This document shows, piece after piece, positions 6,801 through 34,415 of a stretch of 36,507 nt of DNA. The translations under genes and the position numbers were made by a program. The notes under the pieces are model-generated. The model made no database searches and had not been told where the DNA came from. It was given only the letters and a program-made list of their open reading frames with translations. Each line of letters opens with the position of its first letter. The first letter of the stretch is position 1. This DNA is from a virus, in IMG/VR virus record IMGVR_UViG_3300047321_000299, one strand, 5' to 3'.

Positions 6801-7658
6801 TCAGGTGGTGGCGAGGGTGCCGACGCACACACCGCGGTCGTTGAGGCGCTTGACGGCGTAGTGCATGGTCGTGGTGACGACGGTCGAGCGGGCGAGGATG
6901 TCGCGGTCCGACTCGACCAGCGGGCGCCGCTTGTAGAGCAGGCCAAGCGCGTTGTTCTTGAGCAGCAGAAACTTGCCCGCGGTGATCCGGTTCGTGATGA
7001 ACACGGGCACGCCACCGATCCGGCCGATAGAGCCGGTCACGGCCGCGGACGCACCGTTGCCGAGCTTCGCCGCGTCGACGAACTGCGCGTCGGCCATGGC
7101 CTCGGCGAGCTGAACGCTGTTGAGGTACAGGCCGGCGAAGTCGGACGGCTCCCACTCGTCGCCGAACTGGCCGATGGCGGGCACCATCGAGTCAGCCCAC
7201 GTGAACTTGGTCTTGCCCGTGGCGGTGGTGAACGCGAACGGAGTGCCGCCACCCTGCGCGGTCTCGTTGGCCTGCGCCTGAGCGATCAGCGCCGCGTCGA
7301 CCTTGCGGGCGGCGAGGATGCCGAACTGGCGGCGGGCCTCGGCCTCGGGGTCGCCGAGGGAGGTAAGGCGGGCCTTGTCCGTGATCTCGACCGCCTTACC
7401 GGCCTCCTTGATCGTGGCCGTGGCGTCCGCCGTCGACATGGCGGTCGGGGTCATCGCCGTGGTCTCGGTGAGGTCGTCGAGGTCGCCGATCGCCCCCCAC
7501 TTCGGGAAGTTGACGGTGTCGCCGGGGGCGCCCTCAAGGGTGTTGTCCTCGATGACGGCGGCCGATCCGGCGACGCGGACCTGTCCGACGAAAGACGCCT
7601 GCGCCATGTCGCCCCACACCTCGGGGTTGATCACAGCGGCTGCGGTGGTCTGAGCCAT
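6801..7658 (-). CDS. Major capsid protein (285 aa, no delta domain)
   Basis: It sits immediately downstream of the scaffold gene. A GGAGAGAG SD lies upstream. The size and composition fit a scaffold-dependent HK97-fold capsid protein. Confidence 0.8.
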   Translation of the reverse strand: MAQTTAAAVINPEVWGDMAQASFVGQVRVAGSAAVIEDNTLEGAPGDTVNFPKWGAIGDLDDLTETTAMTPTAMSTADATATIKEAGKAVEITDKARLTSLGDPEAEARRQFGILAARKVDAALIAQAQANETAQGGGTPFAFTTATGKTKFTWADSMVPAIGQFGDEWEPSDFAGLYLNSVQLAEAMADAQFVDAAKLGNGASAAVTGSIGRIGGVPVFITNRITAGKFLLLKNNALGLLYKRRPLVESDRDILARSTVVTTTMHYAVKRLNDRGVCVGTLATT

Positions 7659-7727
7659 GGTCGTTGCTCACTCTCTCCGGCGACGGTGCGCCGGGCTTTG
7701 GGTCGCCCGGCACGGGGCCGGGCAGTT

Positions 7728-8435
7728 TCAGGAACCGGCGAGGCGCCGGTACGTGTCGGGGTCGGACTCGTACAGCGCGGTGCGCGCGGTGTAGTCCATG
7801 GCGGCGAACTGGGCGGGGGTGACCTCGCCGTTTCCGCCGCTGGTGAAGTCGGCGCCGCCGCGGGAGGGCCCGGCGGCGCGGGCGGCGAGGTACGGCTGTG
7901 CGGTGATCGCTGCCTGAATCGCCGCGGTGACGGCCGCGGGGTCGGTCGGGTCGATGGCGGCGAGTGCTGCCATGGCCGATGTGCTGTCGAGCAGCGCGGC
8001 CGGATCGGCGCCGGCCGCGGCGGCGGTGGTGTAGACGGCGGACTGAACGGCGGCCCGCTGGGTCGCGGCCTGTCCGTCGGTGACGAGTCGCTGTGCCCAC
8101 TGCGGGAGACGCTCGACGGCGCCCTCGGCGATCGGCTCGGGCGCGGTCGGCGTGGGCTGCGGCGGCTGCCCGGCAGTCTGCGCCCGGGTCCGGTACTGGG
8201 CTGCCTCGGCGCGGGTGTTCGCGATGAGCGTCTGCGCCCATGCGGGCAGGCTGGCGACGTCCTGCGGCTCACCCTGCGGGGCGGGCTGTGCGGGCGTCTG
8301 CGGCTGTGCGGGCGCGGCCGGGTCCTGCGATGCGGGTACGGCGGCCGGGGCGCCCTGCGGGGCGGTGGCGGCCGGGGCGGCGGGTGCGGGTGCCGGGGCG
8401 GCGGGTGCCGGGGCGGTGGGGGTCGGGGTGGACAT
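7728..8435 (-). CDS. Scaffolding protein (235 aa)
   Basis: The internal ATG at 8435 has a CAGGAGGG SD. The N-terminus is Pro/Ala-rich and is followed by a helical Ala/Gln-rich body. It lies directly upstream of the capsid gene. Confidence 0.65.
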   Translation of the reverse strand: MSTPTPTAPAPAAPAPAPAAPAATAPQGAPAAVPASQDPAAPAQPQTPAQPAPQGEPQDVASLPAWAQTLIANTRAEAAQYRTRAQTAGQPPQPTPTAPEPIAEGAVERLPQWAQRLVTDGQAATQRAAVQSAVYTTAAAAGADPAALLDSTSAMAALAAIDPTDPAAVTAAIQAAITAQPYLAARAAGPSRGGADFTSGGNGEVTPAQFAAMDYTARTALYESDPDTYRRLAGS

Positions 8436-8737: not shown

Positions 8738-10951
8738 TCATCTCCGGTTCTGGTGGTCGGACTCATTCTTACGGGCACCGGATGCCCACCGCTGGGCTTG
8801 GCCGGTGGCCTTCTCGATGAACTCGGCCTGCGTCATGCGGCCGTGTTCGGCCCACCACTCTTTCAGCTCGTCCGACGCGTTCGCGTGGGCGATGCGTGCC
8901 GGGCCAGAGAACAGGGTTATGGGTGCTCGGCCGGCCGCTGCTGCCTTCTTGCTGAGCAGCACACCGCGTAGGTCTTCCTCGGCTTGCAGGTACTGCCGGT
9001 AGATGTACTCGTCGTACAGCTCGCGGGCCTGCCTGCGGGTCAGGAGGGGTGCCGCCTCGGCGGCCTCGGCTCCTCCTGCCTCGGCGACGGCTTCGGCGAG
9101 CTGCTCGGCGAACGCTGCGTCGTCGGCGAGGGCGCCCCACCCTTCCGGGTCGGGGGCGGGGTCCATCGCTTCGGCGAGCGCGTTGCGGTCGGCGAGCAGG
9201 TCGTCGACGGCGTTGCCGGTCGCGGCCGGGTGCGGGAGGTCGACGGCGTCGCGGCTGTCCATCTCCCCCGCAATGCGCAGGATCTCGTCGGGGTGGGCGT
9301 ACTGCATGCACCATGCGAGCTCGTCGTCGCCGACCTGGTCGAGGTCGGCCCGCAGCTCGCCGCTGGGGAAGTGCTGGGCGAGCAGGTCGCGGCGGTGTGC
9401 CTCGGCGGCGAGGGCGTCGCGGTCGGCCGGTGCGTCGCGGTAGCGGGCGGCGAGCTGGTCGTCGGACAGTCCGTGGAGATCGCGGCGCGCCCCGGGGAGT
9501 TGTCCGGCGCGGTCGCGGCGGTCCAGCTCGGACATGACGCGTAGCGCGTCGCTGTCGTCGAGGTGGCCGAACACTTTGCCGAGCTCCTGGTCGGACAGTC
9601 CGAGCAGGTCGTCGGTAAGGCGGCCGCCGGGGGCGGCGCGGTCGAGCAGGGCCTGTTGGTCGCGGCGGTCGGCCTCGGTCTCGATGCGGGCGCGGTCGCG
9701 TTCGGTGAGCTCACCGTGTCGCATGGCGGCTGTCAGCTCGTCGTCGCTCATCTCCCGTGGGGTGAGGTCGTCGCCGGATCGGATGCGGGCGGCCTGCTGT
9801 GCCTCCTCGGGGACCGGGCGGCGAGCAGGGGGGAGGTTCGAGGCACCGGGCTGCTCGCGCTTGGGGTTGCGGCGTAGGTCGGGGTGGGCGGCGAGGTGCT
9901 CGCGCTGGGCGCCCTGCCACTGCCTGACCTTGGCCTCGGCCGCGCGCTTGGCCTCGGGGGAGGTGGCGGCCGCGGCGCGGTTCTTGTGCTTTCGGATGTT
10001 GCGTTCGATGGCGCGCTGCCGTTGGCCGGCCTCGTATCCGTCGGGGTCGCTCTCGGCGTCCTCGGTGCGGGTGAGCCCCGGGGTGTACGCCGATACGGAG
10101 TGACGGCAGTTGGGGTGCTGGAATCCGGCGCGGCGGGCCTCGTCGAGCGATCCGGCGACCCTGACGGGGACCATGCGCCCGTCCTCGATGGCGTGCTCGG
10201 CCTCGACGGTGCGGGCTCCCTCGGCGCCGCTGATCGCCAGTACCTTGCCCTCCCACGGGCGGCACAACGGGCACTCGCGCGGTGCGTTGGACACCACTAC
10301 GAACTGCACTCCGGCCGTGTCCAACGTGCGCATGTGGGCCTCGGTGGCGGCGCGCCCGACGCTGGTGCGCACCGCCATTTCCGCGTACGACGTGAGCTGC
10401 CAACGGCGGCCGGCGCGGTCGCGAAAGCCGGTGATGCCCTCGTCGGCGAACCGGCGCATGGCGTCCTGCGTGGCCTGGCGGCGCGTGCCGGTGCCGAGCA
10501 GGGGCGTGGCGGTGACCTCGGCGACGATGCCGCGGTACCGGTCGTCGACGGCCCGCAGAATGCTGCGGTGGGTCGCGGTGATCCGGTCGACGGTCTCTTG
10601 TGCGAGGCGGTCGACGGCCTGCGCGTTCGGGGTGACGTCGTCGACCAGGCGGCGGGCGTCATCCGACAGTGCGCCGAGCTCGGCGACGGCGGAGCGGTGC
10701 CCCACGTTGTACGCCTCGGCGACCACGTCGAACACTTCCAGCGTGGTCGCCTTGCCGAGCTCGCCGACAACGGCCTGCGAGGCGCGGCGTACGGCCTGCA
10801 CGGCGGACAGCTTCCGCTCGACCCATCCCGGGGCGTCGAGGCCGTCGGCGAGCTGGCGGGCGATGATGCCCAACAGGCGCTGCTCGGCCTGCTCGTACAG
10901 GTCGCGGGTGCCGGTGGCGAGGTCCTCGACCATGCCCGGATGGATCGCCAC
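8738..10951 (-). CDS. MuF-like (SPP1 gp7 family) minor head protein with a 350-aa-plus C-terminal extension (737 aa)
   Basis: The core ...RRWQLTSYAEMAVRTSVGRAATEAH...VVVSNAPRECPLCRPWEGKVLAI... is the Phage_Mu_F signature. GTG 10951 lies 7 nt after TAAGGAGGG. The 83 aa further upstream in the track ORF overlap the portal gene and are Pro/Arg/Ser junk. Confidence 0.85.
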   Translation of the reverse strand: MAIHPGMVEDLATGTRDLYEQAEQRLLGIIARQLADGLDAPGWVERKLSAVQAVRRASQAVVGELGKATTLEVFDVVAEAYNVGHRSAVAELGALSDDARRLVDDVTPNAQAVDRLAQETVDRITATHRSILRAVDDRYRGIVAEVTATPLLGTGTRRQATQDAMRRFADEGITGFRDRAGRRWQLTSYAEMAVRTSVGRAATEAHMRTLDTAGVQFVVVSNAPRECPLCRPWEGKVLAISGAEGARTVEAEHAIEDGRMVPVRVAGSLDEARRAGFQHPNCRHSVSAYTPGLTRTEDAESDPDGYEAGQRQRAIERNIRKHKNRAAAATSPEAKRAAEAKVRQWQGAQREHLAAHPDLRRNPKREQPGASNLPPARRPVPEEAQQAARIRSGDDLTPREMSDDELTAAMRHGELTERDRARIETEADRRDQQALLDRAAPGGRLTDDLLGLSDQELGKVFGHLDDSDALRVMSELDRRDRAGQLPGARRDLHGLSDDQLAARYRDAPADRDALAAEAHRRDLLAQHFPSGELRADLDQVGDDELAWCMQYAHPDEILRIAGEMDSRDAVDLPHPAATGNAVDDLLADRNALAEAMDPAPDPEGWGALADDAAFAEQLAEAVAEAGGAEAAEAAPLLTRRQARELYDEYIYRQYLQAEEDLRGVLLSKKAAAAGRAPITLFSGPARIAHANASDELKEWWAEHGRMTQAEFIEKATGQAQRWASGARKNESDHQNRR

Positions 10952-12449: not shown

Positions 12450-12666
12450 GGGTGCTCGCCTCCTCAAATGGGATGTGCACGGTGGTGGTCAGTACGTCGT
12501 CGCCGTGGGTGATGCGGCGGCCCTCGCGGTCGCGGACGTACAGCAGGGCGCGCACGCCGTCGTCAACGTCCAGGTGCACGCTGCGCACAAGGGACGGCGG
12601 CAGGCCGAGGGCACGGCACACGGTGCGGACCTGCTCGGTACTCAGGGCGACAGGGATGTCGGTCAT
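12436..12666 (-). CDS. Hypothetical protein (76 aa)
   Basis: ATG 12666 forms an ATGA overlap with the terL stop, and GC3 is high. Confidence 0.6.
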   Translation of the reverse strand: MTDIPVALSTEQVRTVCRALGLPPSLVRSVHLDVDDGVRALLYVRDREGRRITHGDDVLTTTVHIPFEEASTRGTA

Positions 12667-13946
12667 GCGGGGGCCTCCTTCGGCGCGGCGAGTAGGTGAC
12701 GCCACTCGTGGGCGGTGGTGTGGACGGAGTAGCGCAGCGCGTCGGCCGAGTGGTCGTTGACCTTCAACGGCTTGTCCTCGCCGCGCTCGGTCGCTTTCGG
12801 ATCCCAGCTGTAACCGGGCATCTCGGTGAGCAGGCCGGTGCAGCTCTCATGGACGAACAGGCGCCCGGCGGCGAGGACGGACGACACGGAACGGATCCCG
12901 TCCGACACGTCGTTGTTGGCGCGGGTCACGCCCTGGTGCCCGTCGGCCCATAGCTGCGTGATGAAGCTCGCGGCGCTGGGGTCGACGAACGTCCACTCCG
13001 GTGCGACGCCCGGCGGTGTGCCGGGGCCGGCCGCAGGGTGCCGCCACTCGCCGAGCCACTCGCGCAACGCTGCGGAGTACTGCGCGTCCGTCATGCTGCG
13101 GTGCGTGGCGCGGGAGTCGTGGCGCCACTCGGCGCACGCGTACAGGCGGTCGTCGGCGCCGAGGCCGAGCAGGATTGCGGAGAAAGGGTTCGTCGTGCCG
13201 TAGTCGAGGCCGACCCAATAGCGGCGCATCTCGGGGAGGTCGGTGACGACGTGGGCCCGCTCGTCCCACATGTCGTAGATGGCGCCTTCGGCGACCACCC
13301 ACGCCCCATCGATCATGCGGCGGCGCCATAGGCCGACGTACTCGGCTGACAGGTCGGCGACGTACTCGGGCGACAGGCTCGGGTTGTCGGCCAACTTGAA
13401 GTGCCAGGCACGCAAGTTCAGTTCGGCGGCGCGGTCGAGGTATCCGGCTTTGAGCCAGTGCCGCGGGCTGTCGGGGTTGGTCGTCGCGTACAGGCGGGCG
13501 CCCGGCACGGACAGTCGGGCGAGTAGCTGCGTCCAGAATCCCTCGGGCAGGAGGGTCGCCTCGTCGACGTACGCGAGCTGCGCGGTGAGGCCTCGTAGGC
13601 GGCCCTCGGCCCGGGTGTCGGCGGCGCCGATCAGGTGGACGGTGCGGCCGAGGATCGTGGCGGTGGTGGCGCCCCGGGTGTGGTGCACGTGCTGGGCGAG
13701 GGGGCCGAACAGTGCGGCGTCCTGCAACGGCTCGAACACGTTGCGCTCGATCGTCTGGAGCGACCGCCCACAGATGATGATCAGTCCGGACGGGCCGGCC
13801 GTGGCCACGGCGATGACGAACGCGAGCAGGCTTGCGATGGTCTTGCCGGATCGCACGGACCCGTGCCACAGGTTGATGCGGGCCGTGGCGCGGCCGATGC
13901 TGCGCAGCTGCTTTCGGGAGAGGGGGAGCGCGTCGAGGTCGAGCAC
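12663..13946 (-). CDS. terL: Terminase large subunit (427 aa)
   Basis: It has a Walker A motif (GSVRSGKT), a Walker B-like motif (LAYVDEA), and C-terminal nuclease-type motifs (VGLDYG, NDHSADALRY). Confidence 0.9.
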   Translation of the reverse strand: MLDLDALPLSRKQLRSIGRATARINLWHGSVRSGKTIASLLAFVIAVATAGPSGLIIICGRSLQTIERNVFEPLQDAALFGPLAQHVHHTRGATTATILGRTVHLIGAADTRAEGRLRGLTAQLAYVDEATLLPEGFWTQLLARLSVPGARLYATTNPDSPRHWLKAGYLDRAAELNLRAWHFKLADNPSLSPEYVADLSAEYVGLWRRRMIDGAWVVAEGAIYDMWDERAHVVTDLPEMRRYWVGLDYGTTNPFSAILLGLGADDRLYACAEWRHDSRATHRSMTDAQYSAALREWLGEWRHPAAGPGTPPGVAPEWTFVDPSAASFITQLWADGHQGVTRANNDVSDGIRSVSSVLAAGRLFVHESCTGLLTEMPGYSWDPKATERGEDKPLKVNDHSADALRYSVHTTAHEWRHLLAAPKEAPA

Positions 13947-13949
13947 GCG

Positions 13950-14459
13950 TCACCCCCCGTCGTCGCCCCCGTCGTCGTCGGCTGCGCGGGTCAGGGCCTC
14001 GCCAAGGGCGCCGAGCATCGAGCGCACCTGGTCGGCTCCCTCGCCACCCTCGGCGGGGGCGAGCTTGAGTGACTGCTGAATCGCGGTGCCGGTCGCGGCG
14101 ATGATCTGGCGCTGGTCTACGAACCGCGGGCGGTCGAGGTCGACGTGTTGCCACGTGCCGTCTTTGCCTGCGAACTCGCCGTACGTGGTGGGCGCCCACA
14201 GTTGGGCGCGCAGCTTCTCGGCGTCCTGGTGCAGCTGCTCGGCGAGCAGGGTGCGACGCGCGGCGAGGTCGATACGGCGGGCCTCGGTGGCGGCGATGAC
14301 CTCGGGCCCTCGCTCGAAGCTGAGGCCGAGCTCCTCGGCGAGCTTCGAAACGGTCGAGGTACTGCGCTTGATCTTCTTGGCGATGGCGTTGCGGGTCATG
14401 CCCGCGGCGTGGTGGCGGCGCACTGCTCGCCGGTCGGTGTCAGTGATGGGTCGGCCCAT
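13950..14459 (-). CDS. terS: Terminase small subunit, putative (169 aa)
   Basis: It lies immediately upstream of terL. It has an N-terminal HTH (RNAIAKKIKRSTSTVSKLAEELG) and an acidic C-terminus. A GAGGAGG SD lies upstream. Confidence 0.65.
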   Translation of the reverse strand: MGRPITDTDRRAVRRHHAAGMTRNAIAKKIKRSTSTVSKLAEELGLSFERGPEVIAATEARRIDLAARRTLLAEQLHQDAEKLRAQLWAPTTYGEFAGKDGTWQHVDLDRPRFVDQRQIIAATGTAIQQSLKLAPAEGGEGADQVRSMLGALGEALTRAADDDGGDDGG

Positions 14460-14604
14460 GGGCGCGTCACCTCCTCGCCGCGGGGTGCGGGCATGCGAAA
14501 CGCCCCGCCGGGGGGGATGACGGGGCGTTCGGGTCTCTTATGGCGCCGCCCGTTTCCGGGCACGCCGGGGCCGCTCTCCACGATAGGTCACGGAAAGGTC
14601 ACGG

Positions 14605-28039: not shown

Positions 28040-28247
28040 CATGGAACGACCAAGTGGAGGGGTTGACTCCGATGTGTGCGAGGTACGAGGCTTCGTAATG
28101 AGAATGTGAAAGAAGCGTGCTCAATCGAGCATGTGTGCGATAAGTTGTACGTGCAACTACTGGATAAGCGGGCGAGGGGGGACCTCGGCATGTGTGGAAT
28201 CTGTGCGCACCTGTCAAAAAACCGTTCATGCGCGATACATTGCCCGC

Positions 28248-28652
28248 ATGACAAGACCAGAGCCGCCCCTGACGGCGAGCATCGGCGAGTGGCTCGGATG
28301 GGCCCTCCCGCGCCGCGGGTACGACCTAGAAGAGCGCGGTAGCCGGGCGCGCTTCGCCGAAGCCTCCGGCATCCCCGTCGCGACGGTCTCACGACTCCTG
28401 CGGGACGCAGGGTCACCCGACGCCCGCACGCTCCTCGCAGTCGCCAAGACACTCGAAGTCCCGGTAATGCCGCTACTCGCGCGCGCCGGCCTCCTGCCAC
28501 TCGAAGAGCTCTACGAGTCCGACGCGCAAACCCCGACGAAGATCTCTTCACATGAAGCGCTAGCGGCCCTCGGCGTGACCGAAGAGGCCGACCAAATCGC
28601 AGTCCTCAGCATGATTCGCGCCCTCCGCGCAAAGGGGGAGAGCGCAACCTAG
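28248..28652 (+). CDS. cI-like XRE-family repressor (134 aa), probably leaderless
   Basis: The HTH is RARFAEASGIPVATVSRLLRDAGSPDARTLLAVAKTL. ATG 28248 has no SD. TACATT (28236-41) ends 6 nt upstream of it. The 39 codons further upstream in the track ORF are Cys-rich junk in the intergenic region. Confidence 0.75.
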   Translation: MTRPEPPLTASIGEWLGWALPRRGYDLEERGSRARFAEASGIPVATVSRLLRDAGSPDARTLLAVAKTLEVPVMPLLARAGLLPLEELYESDAQTPTKISSHEALAALGVTEEADQIAVLSMIRALRAKGESAT

Positions 28653-28664
28653 GAAGGTCCACCC

Positions 28665-28991
28665 GTGTCATCACGCACAACCCTGTACCTGACTGCCGCG
28701 CTTTCCGCCGGACTTCTCTTGATCGGCCTCACCATCCTGATCACCGGTGTACTCACGGACAGACGGGTCGGGTTGGTCATCCAGACCGGTACCACCACGA
28801 CCGCCATCGGCGTCATCGCCACCGTGGTCAACGGCTACCGGGCACTGAACGAATACATCACGTCACGCGTGGCGCACGCCGACAGCGCCGCACTCGTGAA
28901 GGCCATCGTTCAGCACGACGCCCAATTCACCGCGCCGAGCACCGTCGTTGAGTTCGACGCGGCACGACGTCAACGGGAGAACGCAACGTGA
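28665..28991 (+). CDS. Two-TM membrane protein in the lysogeny module (108 aa)
   Basis: GTG 28665 lies 8 nt after GGAAGG. The TM helices are LYLTAALSAGLLLIGLTILITGVL and TTTAIGVIATVV. About 20% of codons end in A/T, versus far fewer in neighbouring phage genes. Confidence 0.7.
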   Translation: MSSRTTLYLTAALSAGLLLIGLTILITGVLTDRRVGLVIQTGTTTTAIGVIATVVNGYRALNEYITSRVAHADSAALVKAIVQHDAQFTAPSTVVEFDAARRQRENAT

Positions 28992-30610
28992 CAGCAGGAC
29001 CAACTCAGCACGTGCCAAGCACGTTCCAGGGCTTGCCGACCGATGAGGACGGCGAGCCCTGGCTCGGTTATATCCGGGTGAGCACGTGGAAAGAGGAGAA
29101 GATCAGCCCCGAGCTGCAAGAGGCAGCCCTACGGGCGTGGGCAAAGCGCACCGGGCGCCGCCTGCTCGAACCGTTCATCACCGACCTCGACGCCACCGGC
29201 CGGAACTTCAAGCGGCGCATCATGGGCGCCATCAAGCGCGTTGAGGACGGCGAGGCGCGCGGCATCGCCGTATGGAAATACAGCCGCTTCGGCCGCAGCC
29301 GCGACGGTATCGCCGTCAACCTCAAACGCCTTGAGGACGCGGGCGGGACGCTGGAGTCTGCGACCGAGGAGGGCGACGCGCGTACGGCGACCGGCCGACT
29401 GCAACGCGGGATCCTGTTCGAGTTCGCGGCATATGAATCCGACGTGCGCGGCGAGCAGTGGAAGGAGACCCATGACCACCGCCGCTACAAACTGCACCTG
29501 CCCGCCACCGGCCGCCCCCGCTTCGGCTACATCTGGCACCCCCGCCGACTCCCCGACGGCCGCGGGGGCTGGACCACGCAAGAGGAGAGATACCTAGCCG
29601 ACCCGAAAACGGGGCCAGTCATGGCCGACCGATACCGGCAGTACACCGACGGAGACGCGTTCTATTCGCTCGTCGGCGAGCTCAACGCGGCCGGCCACCG
29701 GACGGTACGCGGCGGGCTGTGGTCCGAACAGACACTGATCCGGTACATGGACTCCGGATTTGCCGCAGGCCTGCTCCGCATCCATGACCCAAAGTGCCTG
29801 TGCAACCCAGAGACGCGCAACAACTGTCAAAACTGCCTGTTCGTCCCTGGGGCGCAAGAGGAACTGATCGATGCCGAGCTGTGGCAGCAGTACCGCGACC
29901 GCCGCGAGGAGGTGCGGAACACACCGCCGCGGGCCCGCCGTGCCACGTACATGCTGACCAACCTTGTCCGGTGCGGGCAGTGCCGCGGCACGACGCCCGC
30001 GAACTCTGCCGTGCGCGTCATCAACGACGTTCCGACCAACGTCCTCGGCTACTCGTACACATGCGGCCGGCGGGCGGTACAGGCCGCCCACGGCTGTGAC
30101 GGAGTATGGGTCAAGCGCGAAGACGTCGAGGCCGAGGTGTTGAAGTGGCTCGCCAAGGAGGCCGCCCCCGGAATCGACACCGCGCCGAGCATCCCTCAGC
30201 AGCGCATCGAGCAGCGCGACCACCGCGCCGCCGCCGCGCTCGACCGTGCCAGGCTGCAAGCCGAGGTCGACAAACATGCCGCCGCCCTCGCCAACCTGCG
30301 GGCCCAACGCGCAGCCGACCCGGACGAATTCGAGCCGGGCGAGTATGAGGCCGCCCGCGATCTCATCCGGAAGAAGCAGGCGGCGACGCAGGCCGCATTG
30401 GAACGGGTCTCTACCGTCGAGACCACCCCGCACCGCGCCGACTATGTGCCTCTGCTGGTCGGCACGGTCGCGGAGTGGCCGACGCTGGACACGCGCGGGA
30501 GAAACGGCCTACTCAAGCAGCTTGCGCGACGGGTGGCACTGGTACGCACCGAGGACGGCACAAAGGTCGTGGTGCATCCTGTGTGGGAGCCGGACCCGTG
30601 GGCCGAGTAG
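28988..30610 (+). CDS. int: Large serine recombinase (integrase, 540 aa)
   Basis: It has a resolvase-type N-domain (GYIRVSTWKEEKISPELQ..., GIAVWKYSRFGRS, RLQRGILFEFAAYES). It also has a recombinase domain, a Cys cluster (CGQCRG...CG...C) and a C-terminal coiled coil. The start forms a GTGA overlap with the upstream gene. Confidence 0.9.
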   Translation: MTAGPTQHVPSTFQGLPTDEDGEPWLGYIRVSTWKEEKISPELQEAALRAWAKRTGRRLLEPFITDLDATGRNFKRRIMGAIKRVEDGEARGIAVWKYSRFGRSRDGIAVNLKRLEDAGGTLESATEEGDARTATGRLQRGILFEFAAYESDVRGEQWKETHDHRRYKLHLPATGRPRFGYIWHPRRLPDGRGGWTTQEERYLADPKTGPVMADRYRQYTDGDAFYSLVGELNAAGHRTVRGGLWSEQTLIRYMDSGFAAGLLRIHDPKCLCNPETRNNCQNCLFVPGAQEELIDAELWQQYRDRREEVRNTPPRARRATYMLTNLVRCGQCRGTTPANSAVRVINDVPTNVLGYSYTCGRRAVQAAHGCDGVWVKREDVEAEVLKWLAKEAAPGIDTAPSIPQQRIEQRDHRAAAALDRARLQAEVDKHAAALANLRAQRAADPDEFEPGEYEAARDLIRKKQAATQAALERVSTVETTPHRADYVPLLVGTVAEWPTLDTRGRNGLLKQLARRVALVRTEDGTKVVVHPVWEPDPWAE

Positions 30611-30632: not shown

Positions 30633-30688
30633 GGGGAGAGTGTTTTGATCACAGTGACCAGCGTGAGTGTGTCTAAAACACTCTCCCC
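30633..30688. other. Candidate attP for the serine integrase (56-bp imperfect palindrome)
   Basis: GGGGAGAGTGTTTT-28 nt-AAAACACTCTCCCC forms perfect 14-bp outer arms. The inner 28 nt are partly symmetric (8 of 14 pairs) around a non-palindromic centre. It lies 23 nt after the int stop. Confidence 0.5.
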
Positions 30689-30768: not shown

Positions 30769-30803
30769 CCCCCGACCATCTGACGGGGGCAGATGATCGG
30801 GGG
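30769..30803 (-). terminator. Rho-independent terminator of the small-protein operon
   Basis: The minus strand reads CCCCCGATCATCTG-ccccgt-CAGATGGTCGGGGG followed by TTTCTGC. The stem pairs 13 of 14 positions. Confidence 0.6.
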
Positions 30804-30857
30804 CGTGGAGCCCCGCCCGCACCCTGACCGCCGCCGGCCTCGGGTGCGCGCGGGAGA

Positions 30858-31019
30858 TCAGCTACGCCACGTGGTCCCGGGGTGGTCCCACGATGGCCGA
30901 GTGTGCGGGTCGTAGTGCTCGTCCCCCTTGTGGTGGGGGTCCTTTCGGCAGCGCGCCCCGGTCTTCGGGTCCAGGTCCCAGCAGACGTGCGTGATGACGT
31001 CGGTTGACTCGGTCTTCAT
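30858..31019 (-). CDS. Small His/Asp-rich protein (53 aa)
   Basis: ATG 31019 forms an ATGA overlap with the upstream stop. The translation is MKTESTDVITHVCWDLDPKTGARCRKDPHHKGDEHYDPHTRPSWDHPGTTWRS. GC3 is high. It is below the track cutoff. Confidence 0.5.
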   Translation of the reverse strand: MKTESTDVITHVCWDLDPKTGARCRKDPHHKGDEHYDPHTRPSWDHPGTTWRS

Positions 31020-31162
31020 CCCCGCGCCGCCCGCCATGCGCGATTGAGCCGGGCAGCCGTGGGGCAGGCGGCGCGAGCGCGGCAGGTGGCACAGGTGACC
31101 GTGTGCCCGATGAGCGTTCGGTACGCGGTGTCCGTCGGTTGGGTCGGTTGCGTCGTGGTCAC
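31016..31162 (-). CDS. Small Cys3 protein (48 aa)
   Basis: GTG 31162 forms a GTGA overlap. The translation is VTTTQPTQPTDTAYRTLIGHTVTCATCRARAACPTAARLNRAWRAARG. It is below the track cutoff. Confidence 0.5.
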   Translation of the reverse strand: MTTTQPTQPTDTAYRTLIGHTVTCATCRARAACPTAARLNRAWRAARG

Positions 31163-31404
31163 TGCGCTGCCTCTCTGTCGAGCTCGGCCCATACGGTGTC
31201 GCTGGCCTCGGTGCGGTCGTGCCCGTACCGGTCCGCAGCCGCGAGGGCGGTGAGGATGGTGGTGCGCCTGGTTGCTGTCAGCTCGTCGGGGAGGTCGGCC
31301 TCTACGCGAACGCTGGTGGCCGTCGCGGTGGTTCTTGGCTCGTTGCCGGTCGCGGCGGCGAGCATGCCCGCGAGGGCAACGGCACGCGGAGGCACGACTG
31401 ACAT
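31159..31404 (-). CDS. Hypothetical protein (81 aa), first gene of the operon divergent from the GntR regulator
   Basis: Track ORF. A GGGGAG SD lies 6 nt upstream of ATG 31404. Confidence 0.6.
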   Translation of the reverse strand: MSVVPPRAVALAGMLAAATGNEPRTTATATSVRVEADLPDELTATRRTTILTALAAADRYGHDRTEASDTVWAELDREAAQ

Positions 31405-31513
31405 AGCACTCCCCTGGTGATCAGCCTGTCACTTTTCGTGATGCTGAGTATTCAGCTTCGACCTGATGGGTTAGCTTTGTCAACGTCGACGGACAATGCT
31501 CGGAGCTGCGCAT

Positions 31514-32278
31514 ATGCCACGGGAAACGCCCTACTTGCAGGTGGCCGACGCTCTGCGCGCCCGCATCAAAGGCGGCGAGTGGGCGGTAGGCGACAAGCTG
31601 CCCAGCCGCGCACGGTTCGCCGAGGAGTACAACGTCGGCCAGTCCGTTGCCCAGCGCGCGATGGAGCGCCTGATCATCGAGGGCATCCTCGAAGGCCGCG
31701 CCGGATCCGGCACGTACGTCCGCCGGCCACGCGAACGCCTGCGCATGGTCCGTTCCCGTCACCGCGAACGCCGCGGCGGGTCCCCGTTCCGTGCCGACAT
31801 GAAAGAGCAGGGCCGCGCTGGCACATGGGAGTCGCGCAGCGCAGCCCGCACCCCAGCACCGGCACACATCGCGGAACGGTTGGCCATCGAACCGGGCGAC
31901 CTCTGCGTCGTGACGAATTACGAGTTCCTTGCCGACGGCCTCCCTGTCCAACTCTCCGAGAGCTGGGAGCCGATGGCCATCACGGACGGCACCCCGGTCG
32001 TGCTGCCCGAGATGGGCCCGCACGCGGGTGCTGGCGTGGTGGAACGCATGCGGTCAATCGGCGTCATCATCGAGACCGCCGTCGAAGTGCCGCGCCCGGC
32101 CCGCGCGTCGCAGGAACAGGCCAACCTCCTCGGCATCTCGGTCGGCGACCTGATCACTGAAGTCGAGCGAACCTACTACGCCACCGACGGGCGACCGGTC
32201 GAGACCGCAGACATCGTCGTACCCGATATCCGGTGGGAGATCGCTTACGAGATCGGCATCGACCAGCCCGACGCCTGA
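31514..32278 (+). CDS. GntR-family transcriptional regulator, HutC/UTRA subfamily (254 aa)
   Basis: The wHTH is YLQVADALRARIKGGEWAVGDKLPSRARFAEEYNVGQSVAQRAMERLIIEGILEGRAGSGTYV. The C-terminal 170 aa fit a UTRA-type effector domain. ATG 31514 has a GGAG 9 nt upstream and is preferred over ATG 31496. Confidence 0.8.
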   Translation: MPRETPYLQVADALRARIKGGEWAVGDKLPSRARFAEEYNVGQSVAQRAMERLIIEGILEGRAGSGTYVRRPRERLRMVRSRHRERRGGSPFRADMKEQGRAGTWESRSAARTPAPAHIAERLAIEPGDLCVVTNYEFLADGLPVQLSESWEPMAITDGTPVVLPEMGPHAGAGVVERMRSIGVIIETAVEVPRPARASQEQANLLGISVGDLITEVERTYYATDGRPVETADIVVPDIRWEIAYEIGIDQPDA

Positions 32279-32296
32279 CCCCGGATACGCGAAAGG

Positions 32297-32334
32297 CGCC
32301 CCCCGTACGGCCGCGCATGGCCGTACGGGGGGCG
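32297..32334. terminator. Bidirectional stem-loop between convergent genes
   Basis: CGCCCCCCGTACGGCC-gcgcat-GGCCGTACGGGGGGCG forms a 16-bp perfect stem between the GntR stop (32278) and the lysis-cassette end (32355). Confidence 0.75.
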
Positions 32335-32354: not shown

Positions 32355-32660
32355 CTACCGCCACAGGGATACGACAAGGCCGGACACGCCGACCAGTGCG
32401 GCCACGGACGGGATCGGCCACCGGGCCCGCTCCAACGCGTCGAGGCGTGCCGTGTCCCGCTTCTGTCGCTCCGTCTCGCCCCGCTCGCTGGCGTCGAGGC
32501 GCCGCTCGTGGTCTTCGAGGCGTCGGTCGGTCTGGTCGCCGCGCTGGGCGAGTAGTGCCAGCGATCCGTTGACGGTGGCGAATCCTTCGGCCATGGTCCC
32601 GCGCAGCTCGGCGAGGGCGACCGCGACGGCGGCCGCGGTCGAGTCGTTCGGCTCGGTCAC
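32355..32660 (-). CDS. C-terminally anchored membrane protein, last gene of the lysis cassette (101 aa)
   Basis: GTG 32660 forms a GTGA overlap with the holin stop. It has a coiled-coil body and a C-terminal TM helix (WPIPSVAALVGVSGLVVSLW). Confidence 0.65.
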   Translation of the reverse strand: MTEPNDSTAAAVAVALAELRGTMAEGFATVNGSLALLAQRGDQTDRRLEDHERRLDASERGETERQKRDTARLDALERARWPIPSVAALVGVSGLVVSLWR

Positions 32661-32893
32661 TCGCTGCCGTCCTCGACGTCGTCGACCAGGCCGAGGCCGA
32701 GGCGGTCGAGCAGCTGCTCGACGGCGGGCAGGGCCATGATGCGGGCGAGGCCGGCGGATACGGCGACGGCACCCGCGACCCATGGCAGGGACTCGGGTAT
32801 GCCGGACGCGGCAACGATCGCGGGCAGGGCGAGCGCGAAACCGACGACGCCCTGAATGGCGGTGCGGATGGTGCGCTTGTTGGCGGGGGTCAT
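32657..32893 (-). CDS. Holin, putative (78 aa, two TM helices, acidic C-terminus)
   Basis: The internal ATG at 32893 has a GAGG about 9 nt upstream. The TM helices are AIQGVVGFALALPAIVAASGI and LPWVAGAVAVSAGLARIMAL. It lies downstream of the endolysin. Confidence 0.65.
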   Translation of the reverse strand: MTPANKRTIRTAIQGVVGFALALPAIVAASGIPESLPWVAGAVAVSAGLARIMALPAVEQLLDRLGLGLVDDVEDGSE

Positions 32894-33027
32894 GGGGGGA
32901 CCTCGGTTCGGGGTGCGGATGGGCGGGGTGCGCCCCGGCGGCGCGGTGTCGAATGCTCGAGCATTGTCGTCAGGCTGACGAGAAAACTCGAGGTTTTTGG
33001 CGGCGCGGTGCCGGGGCGGTGGGGCGG

Positions 33028-33957
33028 CTACTTGCCGTAGGCGAGGCGGAACAGGGCGGCCCAACCCTTGGGGCCGATCGCCGGATCGTGCTGCTTTCCG
33101 GCGGCGCGGTACTGCGTGTGCGCGTTGTGGAAGCGGGCGACGGCGGCCTGAGTCTGCGGGCCGTAGTTGTCGGCCTCGGGCACGCTCTTGGCGAGGTATC
33201 CGGCGGCCTTCAGCGCGCGCTGCAAGCTCCGCGCCGACGGCTTCGTACGGCCCGGGGCGAGGCCGGCCGGGAACTTCGGCGGGGTGTACGGCGTGGGCTT
33301 CGGCGGCTTGCTCGGGGTCGACGGCTTGCTCGGTGCCTTCGCGTCAAGCAGCTCGGCGACGCGGGCCCGGATCTTCCCCATGGTGAGTGCGGGCCCGCCG
33401 GTCTTGCCGATCGGGCCGCGCGGGTCGATCTTGCCGGGCTGCCACTCGCTGTGGCCGATGACGGACTCGGCGCCCCATCCATGCGCGCGGCAGATAGCCG
33501 CGGCGGTGCGGGCTATGGCCTCGACCTGTGCCTCGGGCCACGGGTCCTTGTTGTCGCCGAGGTTGATGCACTCGAAGCCGTAGAACCGTGCGTTGCCGTC
33601 GGTGTTGGCTTCGTTGTCGGCCGGTAGGGCGCGCTCGGCGATGACGGCGGCGAGTACGTCATCGTCGCCGAGTCCGGCGTGATTCGCGCGCCCGTAGCCG
33701 ACCAGGTGCACGGTCCCGGCCTTGTCGATTACGCCGTGACAGAGCGGGCCGGGAAGGTCGCTGTGGCCGTCGCGGCAGATGGCTACCGAGCTTGCGACGC
33801 CCGACGTCACGGTGTGGTGAATCATGATGCCGTGCATGGGGCCCCACGCCCCGTGTCCGGCCCTGTTGTGGGTGCGCCAGGATCCGACCTCGACGACGTC
33901 GACGTCCGCGCCGCGCAGGGCGGACAGGAACCGAGCCGCGGTGAGCGGTGTTGCCAT
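33028..33957 (-). CDS. Endolysin: N-acetylmuramoyl-L-alanine amidase (Amidase_2/PGRP) plus C-terminal peptidoglycan-binding domain (309 aa)
   Basis: Amidase motifs are GIMIHHTV, FYGFECIN and VIGHSEWQPGKIDP. A Pro/Lys linker follows. The PG_binding_1 pattern is SLQRALKAAGYLAK...DNYGPQTQAAVARFH. ATG 33957 has a GGAGA 8 nt upstream and is preferred over 33975 and 34056. Confidence 0.85.
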   Translation of the reverse strand: MATPLTAARFLSALRGADVDVVEVGSWRTHNRAGHGAWGPMHGIMIHHTVTSGVASSVAICRDGHSDLPGPLCHGVIDKAGTVHLVGYGRANHAGLGDDDVLAAVIAERALPADNEANTDGNARFYGFECINLGDNKDPWPEAQVEAIARTAAAICRAHGWGAESVIGHSEWQPGKIDPRGPIGKTGGPALTMGKIRARVAELLDAKAPSKPSTPSKPPKPTPYTPPKFPAGLAPGRTKPSARSLQRALKAAGYLAKSVPEADNYGPQTQAAVARFHNAHTQYRAAGKQHDPAIGPKGWAALFRLAYGK

Positions 33958-33976
33958 GGTGGTGTCTCCAGACATG

Positions 33977-34005
33977 CAAAAAGCCCCGGCCATAGGGCGC
34001 GGGGC
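33977..34005 (-). terminator. Weak terminator between tail genes and lysis cassette
   Basis: The minus strand reads GCCCCG-11 nt-CGGGGC followed by TTTTT. The stem is only 6 bp. Confidence 0.4.
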
Positions 34006-34022
34006 GGGCGGGGTGTGGGCTC

Positions 34023-34415
34023 TTACGGGGTGTACGTGATGTGGATGGAGAGCCACGTAATGCTGGCCAGGTTCGCCGTGAGGGCGAACAGGGTTACGTC
34101 ACCGGTCGTGGACAGGTCCACGTGCGCGTTCAACGTGGCGTTGGCCGAGTTCGTCGCTGGTGCGCTTCGGCGCAGTCCCGTGCTCGGCCGCGCCCATGTC
34201 GGTAGCGTCGCGATAGCCGCACTCGTGGTGGTGTTGATGGCGACGTCCAGTTGCAGTTCAACCTGTCCGTCGGGGTGTCTGCGGATCCGGTGCAGAGACT
34301 GCCCGGGTGCGCCGTCGGAGGCGGCGCCCTTGATCGGCAGGTCTTGCCACTCGATCAGGTCCCCCAGGAGTCGGTCCCCGGTGATGATCATTCCTGGCAG
34401 CCAGGCAGTTGGCAT
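34023..34415 (-). CDS. Small tail / tail-tip protein, hypothetical (130 aa)
   Basis: Track ORF. An AGGAGGAG SD overlaps the upstream TAG. The sequence looks beta-rich. GC3 is noticeably lower, with about 25 of 131 codons ending in A/T. Confidence 0.7.
   Translation of the reverse strand: MPTAWLPGMIITGDRLLGDLIEWQDLPIKGAASDGAPGQSLHRIRRHPDGQVELQLDVAINTTTSAAIATLPTWARPSTGLRRSAPATNSANATLNAHVDLSTTGDVTLFALTANLASITWLSIHITYTP

Follow-up and report, generated by a model that had tools for sequence, protein, structure and literature searches.

A candidate portable repressor/operator cassette with conserved micro-proteins in a temperate Streptomyces phage

Introduction

What is a GntR-family regulator doing in a temperate phage, back to back with three proteins of 81, 48 and 53 amino acids? 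The question arises from IMG/VR record IMGVR_UViG_3300047321_000299, a 36.5 kb (36,507 nt) stretch of phage DNA, which we call the window and to which all coordinates refer unless a locus number is given. An original prediction, made from the letters of this sequence, described an accessory island between the phage attachment site (attP) and the lysis genes, in which a HutC/UTRA-type regulator gene is divergent from a minus-strand operon encoding the three small proteins (here p81, p48 and p53). The operon genes were said to be joined by GTGA and ATGA overlaps, and a 109-bp control region to separate them from the regulator. All of this anatomy holds, as do the coordinates. What the island does is a different matter, and the suggestion had been that it couples host nutritional state to exclusion, defence or the lysis-lysogeny decision.

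The cassette is real and widespread. It recurs in prophages at the same slot, on a plasmid and on chromosomes, with differing genes after p81; small Cys/His domains come behind p81 or are fused to it (here p48, with the arrangement H-x3-C-x2-C...C, and then p53). On balance the evidence tilts towards a portable, self-contained and locally acting Kor-like repressor/operator cassette, a piece of prophage cargo that occupies the slot separating the lysis genes from attP.

The regulator and its constant partner

The regulator gene (31514-32278, plus strand) encodes a protein of 254 aa with a winged helix-turn-helix (HTH) and a UTRA domain, both of which match Pfam above the curated cut-offs. The GntR domain (PF00392; E = 4.4e-16, 58.7 bits against a cut-off of 27) occupies residues 6-69 and spans the full profile length, and the UTRA domain (PF07702; E = 9.5e-16, 58.3 bits against a cut-off of 23.8) occupies residues 98-234, matching positions 1-133 of the 141 in the profile. 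By its domain architecture the protein belongs to the HutC/UTRA-type GntR regulators, as had been proposed. Its ATG start at 31514 is backed by all orthologues and by a conserved GGAG, and dN/dS against its homologues is 0.19. The nearest solved structure is 3eet (E = 3e-55), which is uncharacterised, and the protein also matches phrog_10724 (6e-37). A PADLOC search for known anti-phage defence functions gave no match to the regulator.

The first gene on the other strand encodes p81 (31159-31404, minus strand), which starts with ATG and has GGGGAG 4 nt upstream of it. There are 28 close homologues, every one of them labelled 'hypothetical', and an exhaustive profile search gave a family of 164 representative clusters. 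The GC content at third codon positions (GC3) is 0.82, which supports coding, and dN/dS is 0.45. No match to p81 was found in Pfam, NCBIfam, PHROG or PADLOC. AlphaFold (AF2) predicts its structure confidently (pLDDT 92.8) with secondary structure elements in the order alpha-beta-beta-alpha-beta-beta; a comparison of the model with the PDB gave no fold match with E < 0.001, Foldseek TM-scores being at most 0.56 and all E-values above 0.02. In proteins elsewhere, the p81 domain is fused to other Cys-rich tails, to DUF6415, or to a region weakly matching HATPase_c_2.

The possibility that p81 is a shortened HATPase_c_2 or STAS domain was considered and rejected as unsupported. There is a weak local match to gp26, a HATPase_c_2 protein of the related phage Raleigh (E = 0.04; hhalign probability 26% over 50 columns), and the p81 domain does neighbour HATPase_c_2 in P0147 and L047.

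The association of the two genes was followed through relatives of the regulator from six viral contigs and relatives of p81 from 28 genome loci. They are adjacent and divergent in all 34 (6/6 viral, 28/28 genome). The same pair is present on a linear plasmid (L043), where the p81 homologue is 43% identical over 60 residues, and it is kept in remote members of the p81 family which were found by profile search alone (L045, L047, L048 and L050). A tblastn search of plasmids with p81 gave no match and so missed the L043 copy, probably owing to the low-complexity filter; its outcome is disregarded. Taking prophages, viral contigs, the plasmid and chromosomes together, a divergent GntR-UTRA gene is found in 43 of the 45 loci that have a p81-family open reading frame (ORF). 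A contig end cuts one of the two exceptions, and the other is taken up below, where the mechanism is weighed. The regulator and p81 form an evolutionarily fixed, almost obligate divergent pair.

The setting of the pair is also recurrent. In prophages L003, L004, L009, L011, L014, L015, L032, L039 and L048 an endolysin or holin gene immediately precedes the cassette, and the prophages that carry it have tyrosine or serine integrases. Throughout the S. griseus clade the cassette keeps a constant place on the chromosome, close to glnA, and in these loci no match to genes of the present phage was found within 8 kb of it. With copies on a plasmid and on S. griseus-clade chromosomes, the cassette is not specific to phages.

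Genes downstream of p81

What follows p81 differs from locus to locus. In the window it is p48 and then p53; in L037 it is p48, a 72-aa protein and a NUDIX hydrolase; in L039 a resolvase fragment and a UCP032817-like protein; in L003 and L004 an unassigned 167-169-aa homologue of this last protein; in L010 and L008 CAWH-type Cys proteins; in L047 a conservon-like operon; and in L032 there is nothing.

Some of these loci have further features. In L047 (2649-8580 of that locus) the GntR-UTRA regulator is accompanied by a 344-aa p81-domain protein, whose C-terminal match to HATPase_c_2 is weak and below the cut-off, and then by genes like those of a Streptomyces conservon (HATPase_c kinase-like, Robl_LC7, DUF742 and GTPase). 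In L039 the resolvase fragment (10243-10629) is a 128-aa Resolvase-domain protein directly after p81, and host competence-type genes (12572-14592; weak Pfam matches to Competence and HHH_3) abut the prophage, which places the cassette at the prophage end. An ORF of 41-45 aa (..EWIDPRYAELV.AWKRAQ..) follows the UCP032817-like gene in L039 (11238-11363) and its homologue in L003 (2087-2224), and is likely to be another unannotated micro-protein. In L025 (S. globisporus JCM 4378; 7099-7861 and 8001-8420) the regulator seems to be frameshifted, with two tblastn pieces in different frames, which may reflect either decay or a sequencing error; the p81-p48 reading frame of this locus extends 20 codons beyond the usual stop.

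So strict a linkage between regulator and p81, together with prophages that hold those two genes alone (L032), is what would be expected of a kil-kor pair. Here p81, with or without p48 and p53, would be a 'kil' function inhibiting growth or development, and the regulator the 'kor' function which silences it in the lysogen; derepression would harm the host or a superinfecting phage. There is a precedent in the GntR-HutC Kor repressors of Streptomyces integrative elements, whose kor gene cannot be deleted (PMC8584621, PMC2440964), and the NUDIX cargo of L037 recalls the Pif protein of pSAM2 (PMC2440964). We nevertheless think a kil-kor pair improbable. The p81-p48 frame of L025 is open beside a seemingly frameshifted regulator, which would not be expected if p81 were toxic, and the cassette is held at one chromosomal position throughout the S. 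griseus clade. In addition, PADLOC gave no match, and a search next to the Kor-like regulators of pMLP1 and ZL12 turned up no p81.

The shared control region

The 109 bp between the two divergent genes (31405-31513) contain a conserved core of 46 bp (31438-31483), in which we place putative overlapping divergent promoters together with their operators. Over 35 distinct loci, the median identity of the core to the window is 95.7%, compared to 64-67% for its flanks and a synonymous dS of approximately 0.73.

Two palindromes had been noted in this region. The first, GCTGAgtatTCAGC (31443-31456; here called site A), is a conserved dyad, GCTGA-GTAT-TCAGC. It is retained with altered arms in other loci, as GCTnC-TTAA-GnAGC in L007, L017, L035 and L036, as TAATGCATTA in L047 and as TAATCGATTA in L050. 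Loci with the TTAA-type dyad have R43-N44 in place of Q43-S44 where the recognition helix begins, and the link between helix and dyad is suggestive. Site A is thus the putative operator of the regulator. The second palindrome, TTGTCAACGTCGACGGACAA (31477-31496), fared less well. It has merely 5+5 outer arms and an offset inner CGTCGACG, and was rejected as an operator dyad for want of conservation in the right arm; only the left arm, TTGTCAA, is invariant across related loci.

A related half-palindromic site, site B (CCTGATGGGTTAGC, 31462-31475), is found about 19 bp from site A. In L047, L050 and L008 both sites carry one common half-site, and that half-site differs between the loci. The motifs of sites A and B occur nowhere else in the window, site B being unique, and for this reason the regulator appears to be local in its action.

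The core also contains the sequence TTGACA (31478-31483, minus strand), the putative -35 element of the p81 operon promoter, with GAAGCT 18 nt downstream of it (31459-31454). Apart from one or two loci among the most divergent, TTGACA is invariant, and this includes loci with different operators. On the plus strand, TAGCTT (31472-31477) is the putative -10 element (TAnnnT) of the regulator promoter, and in divergent loci this element is seen as TAGCTT, TAACTT or TAGATT. Because TTGACA and TAnnTT are fixed in place while the operators change, they are read as promoter elements. The two promoters would then share the same 36 bp on opposite strands, with sites A and B covering both. Finally, the leader of p81 contains an inverted repeat, TCAC-N5-GTGAT (31429-31442). 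Its consensus (TCAC.....GT.AT) persists in loci that differ in the spacer (as in L010, with ATCACGCCTCGTGAT), and the repeat may function as an additional operator or form a hairpin in the RNA.

p48 and p53

The second gene of the operon, p48 (31016-31162, minus strand), has a GTG start which overlaps the p81 stop codon (GTGA, 31159-31162) and is preceded by GAGAGG 7 nt upstream. The third, p53 (30858-31019, minus strand), has an ATG start overlapping the p48 stop (ATGA, 31016-31019). As originally described, p48 contains C-A-T-C...C and p53 is rich in His and Asp (6 His and 7 Asp, with two Cys).

Only one called protein homologue of p48 exists among 5.8 billion database entries, whereas tblastn turns up homologues, 53-88% identical, in over 20 loci. 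It is concluded that p48 is systematically unannotated. Examples that are uncalled in public annotation are found in L037 (10243-10389, 88% identical) and L042 (5864-5998, 71%). The invariant pattern is D..YR.L..HT..C..CR....C....L.R.WR..R, and among 15 aligned homologues H20, C24, C27 and C33 do not vary. The value of dN/dS is about 0.3, and GC3 is ambiguous as a coding signal. For p53 there are 12 homologues (68-100% identity), mostly 52-53 aa long, and their length supports the ATG at 31019 as its start; GC3 is 0.89 and dN/dS 0.25. The prediction that these small ORFs are genuine is borne out by their conservation elsewhere and by dN/dS values below 1. Judged by the substitution pattern, all three are real genes under purifying selection (dN/dS approximately 0.25-0.45). 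p48 and p53 are probably metal-binding micro-proteins. PADLOC gave no match to p48, p53 or the fused forms described below, and the proposed role in defence or exclusion is so far without support.

In 19 genome loci p81 and p48 are fused in frame, to give a reading frame of approximately 125-137 aa. In the window, and in L037 and L038, they are split, and a 2-nt difference sets TGA over GTG. Fused and split forms alike retain the junction GTGACCAC as well as an upstream GAGAGG. The AlphaFold model of the fusion is confident (pLDDT 90.9), with p48 as a helical hairpin (pLDDT > 90) behind a flexible linker. This model too was compared with the PDB, and gave no match with E < 0.001.

The p48-p53 pair also occurs by itself. 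It is found in L040, L041 and L042 with the same 4-nt overlap (ATGA coupling in L041), divergent from a regulator of 410-421 aa with XRE-HTH and TPR domains that resembles gp25 of Raleigh; in L040 and L041 it comes after an unrelated 129-aa gene. p48-p53 is a separately mobile pair. The original description of the locus as an accessory island stands as far as it is self-contained, bounded by hairpins and located in a variable slot (see below), but not as a unit made up of a regulator and three unknown cargo proteins. A kinship of p53 with the CxxC...CxxC third gene of S. griseus-clade loci was considered and rejected, since the p53 profile finds only the window and L040-L042.

p81 is the first gene after the operator whatever comes next, from conservon-like genes to micro-proteins, and its domain is joined to varied partner domains, as expected for an adaptor. 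Both observations would fit a two-protein switch, in which p81 serves the regulator as its dedicated antagonist or co-factor (anti-repressor or feedback arm), and the pair, as a bistable or pulse-generating device, gates whatever cargo lies downstream. Pairs of a regulator and a small partner are known in Streptomyces, for example at WhiJ/BldB-type loci, and the corresponding slot of Raleigh holds an XRE-TPR regulator together with a HATPase_c_2 protein. On the other hand, the intact UTRA domain points to a small-molecule ligand, and the linkage is explained equally well if p81 is a regulated output. We therefore see a switch of this kind as possible, if unlikely. A broader version, to which we give a similarly small share of our confidence, is that the GntR-UTRA regulator and p81 constitute an undescribed and widespread two-protein switch of Streptomyces mobile elements, with p81 completed by p48. 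If that were true, p81-p48 would have as its direct target either the regulator or a host transcription factor, and might sense metal or redox state. The pair would be a plug-in head for phages, plasmids and chromosomes, making arbitrary cargo answer to host physiology, and the gated cargo would span micro-proteins to conservon-like signalling operons.

Phage context and boundaries of the cassette

The window is from a Streptomyces temperate siphophage, with genes mostly on the minus strand. Its relatives are Raleigh, Darolandstone, Alderaan and Tubberson, with 72-82% nucleotide identity across structural, recombination and integrase genes. A serine integrase (28988-30610), with Resolvase, Recombinase and zinc-ribbon domains, is followed 23 bp past its stop codon by an imperfect inverted repeat of 56 bp (30633-30688; 26-nt arms, 81% complementary, with a 4-nt centre), which is likely to be attP. 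On the other side of the cassette is the lysis region, with the endolysin at 33028-34056 and holin-like genes reaching down to 32355. In this region (32355-33064, minus strand) two ORFs of 142 and 135 aa overlap by 127 nt, and the match of the 142-aa product to phrog_5225 begins only at residue 48; the listed starts of both ORFs are probably too far upstream.

The slot between the attP-like repeat and the lysis genes is variable. A megablast search found no nucleotide match to the cassette in 50,697 phage records, and in a tblastn search of sequenced phages the best match to the regulator was only about 30% identical. In Raleigh and Alderaan other genes occupy this slot. That of Raleigh (L001, 7931-10651) contains a different divergent module of a regulator and three genes, namely the XRE/TPR regulator gp25, the HATPase_c_2 anti-sigma-like gp26, gp27 and gp28. 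The slot seems to collect host-type regulatory cassettes.

The location of the operon raises the question of whether p48 and/or p53, controlled by the regulator, might aid the serine integrase, perhaps in the role of a recombination directionality factor. Some 170 bp separate the end of the operon from the attP-like repeat, the operon and the integrase gene converge, the p48-p53 copies of L040 and L041 are also beside serine-recombinase gene fragments, and known directionality factors are small and diverse. Set against this, the regulator-p81 cassette is also found with tyrosine integrases (L003, L005 and L048), no recognisable integrase lies near it in the S. griseus clade or on plasmid L043, and the p48-p81 fusion occurs in loci without integrases. 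The serine recombinases near the p48-p53 copies are moreover not close relatives of one another. A role as an accessory of integration or excision is thus very improbable.

Both ends of the cassette have strong RNA hairpins, and in this respect the predicted bounding terminators are present with one structure more than had been described. Beyond the small-protein operon, on the minus strand, a proximal hairpin (30812-30854; 13-nt arms, 92% complementary) begins 4 nt past the p53 stop, and a distal one (30769-30803; 14-nt arms, 93% complementary), whose RNA end is GGGGGUUUCU, is terminator-like. The 101-nt region of the minus strand with the distal hairpin folds with -68 kcal/mol (z = -5.9), and its minimum-energy fold contains the proximal hairpin. 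Between the convergent regulator and lysis-cassette genes there is a hairpin with perfect 16-nt arms (32297-32334, both strands; 100% complementary), which has a folding energy of -48 kcal/mol whichever strand is taken (z approximately -4.4) and is terminator-like both ways. For the hairpin regions, none of 200 shuffles folded equally well. A simple terminator scan of the window found none: the scans used for promoters and terminators are tuned to AT-rich consensus sequences, and this one misses the hairpins because they do not have a canonical T-run. Terminators of this kind are usual in high-GC actinomycetes.

Could the regulator be the immunity repressor of the phage? This was considered and rejected. 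A separate phage repressor-like protein of 173 aa is encoded at 28131-28652 (plus strand; phrog_3949, phage transcriptional repressors, 1.6e-15), accompanied by a hydrophobic protein of 108 aa (28665-28991, plus strand) upstream of the integrase, and these two genes are probably the actual immunity repressor region. Given this canonical repressor, and operator motifs which are confined to the cassette, a role in the lysis-lysogeny decision, as had been suggested, is unlikely; as far as gene content and motif distribution can tell, the cassette is not a phage immunity switch.

Proposed mechanism

In the repressor/operator cassette that we favour, a dimer of the regulator would bind the two related sites A and B. 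These would overlie fully overlapping divergent promoters, leftward TTGACA-N18-GAAGCT and rightward TAGCTT, and by virtue of this position binding would repress both transcripts, that of the regulator's own gene and that of the p81-p48-p53 operon. A signal sensed by the UTRA domain would lift repression, and the three small proteins would then be made from a single transcript, with translational coupling at GTGA and ATGA. Since p81 stays while the genes downstream of it change, p81 (with p48 as its second half) would most likely be part of the switch or its first output, and it may act by protein-protein contact rather than as an enzyme.

Several observations weigh against this mechanism, or at least weaken it. 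The second of the two exceptions among the 45 loci is a p81 subfamily that stands beside a GerE-type gene instead of a GntR-UTRA gene, and in L044 a close homologue of the regulator (75% identity) is found without p81. The link between recognition helix and dyad is suggestive and no proof, because the variant loci may form one clade; it may reflect one or few evolutionary events. Neither site A nor site B fits what we take to be the HutC-type operator form, GT-N-TA-N-AC. The proposed -10 element GAAGCT is weak, and a scan for the sigma-70 consensus, with its AT-rich tuning, gave no match. The regulator could alternatively be an activator. Lastly, the structural models of p81 and of the fusion give no clue to function.

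The cassette is of interest for several reasons. A family of about 164 clusters, with no name in the libraries searched, is tied almost invariably to one clade of GntR regulators, and in most cases gene callers overlook two conserved micro-proteins. The 46-bp putative promoter/operator is compact and highly conserved, and could serve as an expression switch in Streptomyces. Moreover, the attP-proximal slot in this group of phages swaps host-type regulatory modules, not toxins or enzymes, which suggests that these prophages alter the regulation of their hosts.

Comparison with known systems

DasR, with which the regulator had been compared, and NagR (YvoA) have the same architecture of GntR winged HTH and UTRA domain, and are dimeric repressors which act on palindromic operators and answer to small ligands. 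The analogy is good at the level of the family and goes no closer. YvoA is remote from the regulator (E = 1e-13), and DasR matches with E = 5e-5 over the HTH only, with no stretch passing alone, so that the regulator does not qualify as a DasR orthologue. The operators found here are unlike the dre site as we take it to be, and the cassette contains no sugar-metabolism genes.

Like phage morons, the cassette lies between functional modules beside the attachment site, is bounded by hairpins, and shows insertion polymorphism, being missing at the equivalent position of related phages. A moron has its own promoter and terminator; here there are strong hairpins on both sides, and the promoters are proposed from conservation. 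It differs from morons in having a dedicated repressor and a conserved putative operator, and in that copies are found outside phages too, on chromosomes and a plasmid.

The invariant H-x3-C-x2-C of p48, inside a helix-turn-helix-like hairpin, is what we take to be the signature of the zinc-binding anti-sigma (ZAS, zf-HC2) proteins. However, no match to zf-HC2 (PF13490) was found for p48 (E up to 1) or for the fused form in L029 (E up to 0.1). p48 has half the length of an anti-sigma domain, its fourth ligand (C33) is downstream and not upstream, and no sigma-factor gene adjoins it.

WhiJ-like XRE loci, which have a small partner and HATPase_c_2, likewise combine a regulator with a short, divergently transcribed operon for small proteins. 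Such a locus occupies the identical slot in Raleigh (gp25 to gp28), and an XRE-TPR regulator heads the other p48-p53 copies. The regulators are of different classes (XRE-TPR there, GntR-UTRA here), and p81 is no clear relative of HATPase_c_2.

The closest described analogue appears to be the KorSA (pSAM2)/SCO3932 class of GntR-HutC repressors from actinomycete integrative elements, which autoregulate and repress a small neighbour, pra; footprinting has located two sites in the divergent region that SCO3932 and SCO3933 share, and the Nudix protein Pif is encoded on pSAM2 (PMC8584621, PMC2440964). In both systems a GntR+UTRA regulator is encoded close to int and attP on an integrating element of Streptomyces, and a divergent control region is common to the regulator and a small gene. 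Autoregulation is described for the KorSA class and is proposed here from the sequence, and the Nudix association (Pif there) is seen in the L037 copy here. The present element is a tailed phage and not a conjugative element, and its cassette has no rep or tra genes. KorSA controls pra and hence genes for replication, excision and transfer, whereas the operator motifs of the present cassette are absent from the rest of the phage. The Kor-like regulators of the integrative element pMLP1 and the plasmid-phage ZL12 are only about 30% identical to this regulator, and p81 was looked for beside them and no detectable relative was found. What appears to distinguish the present cassette from the Kor-like class is therefore its obligate, unnamed partner protein, followed by a train of micro-proteins which are predicted to be translationally coupled.

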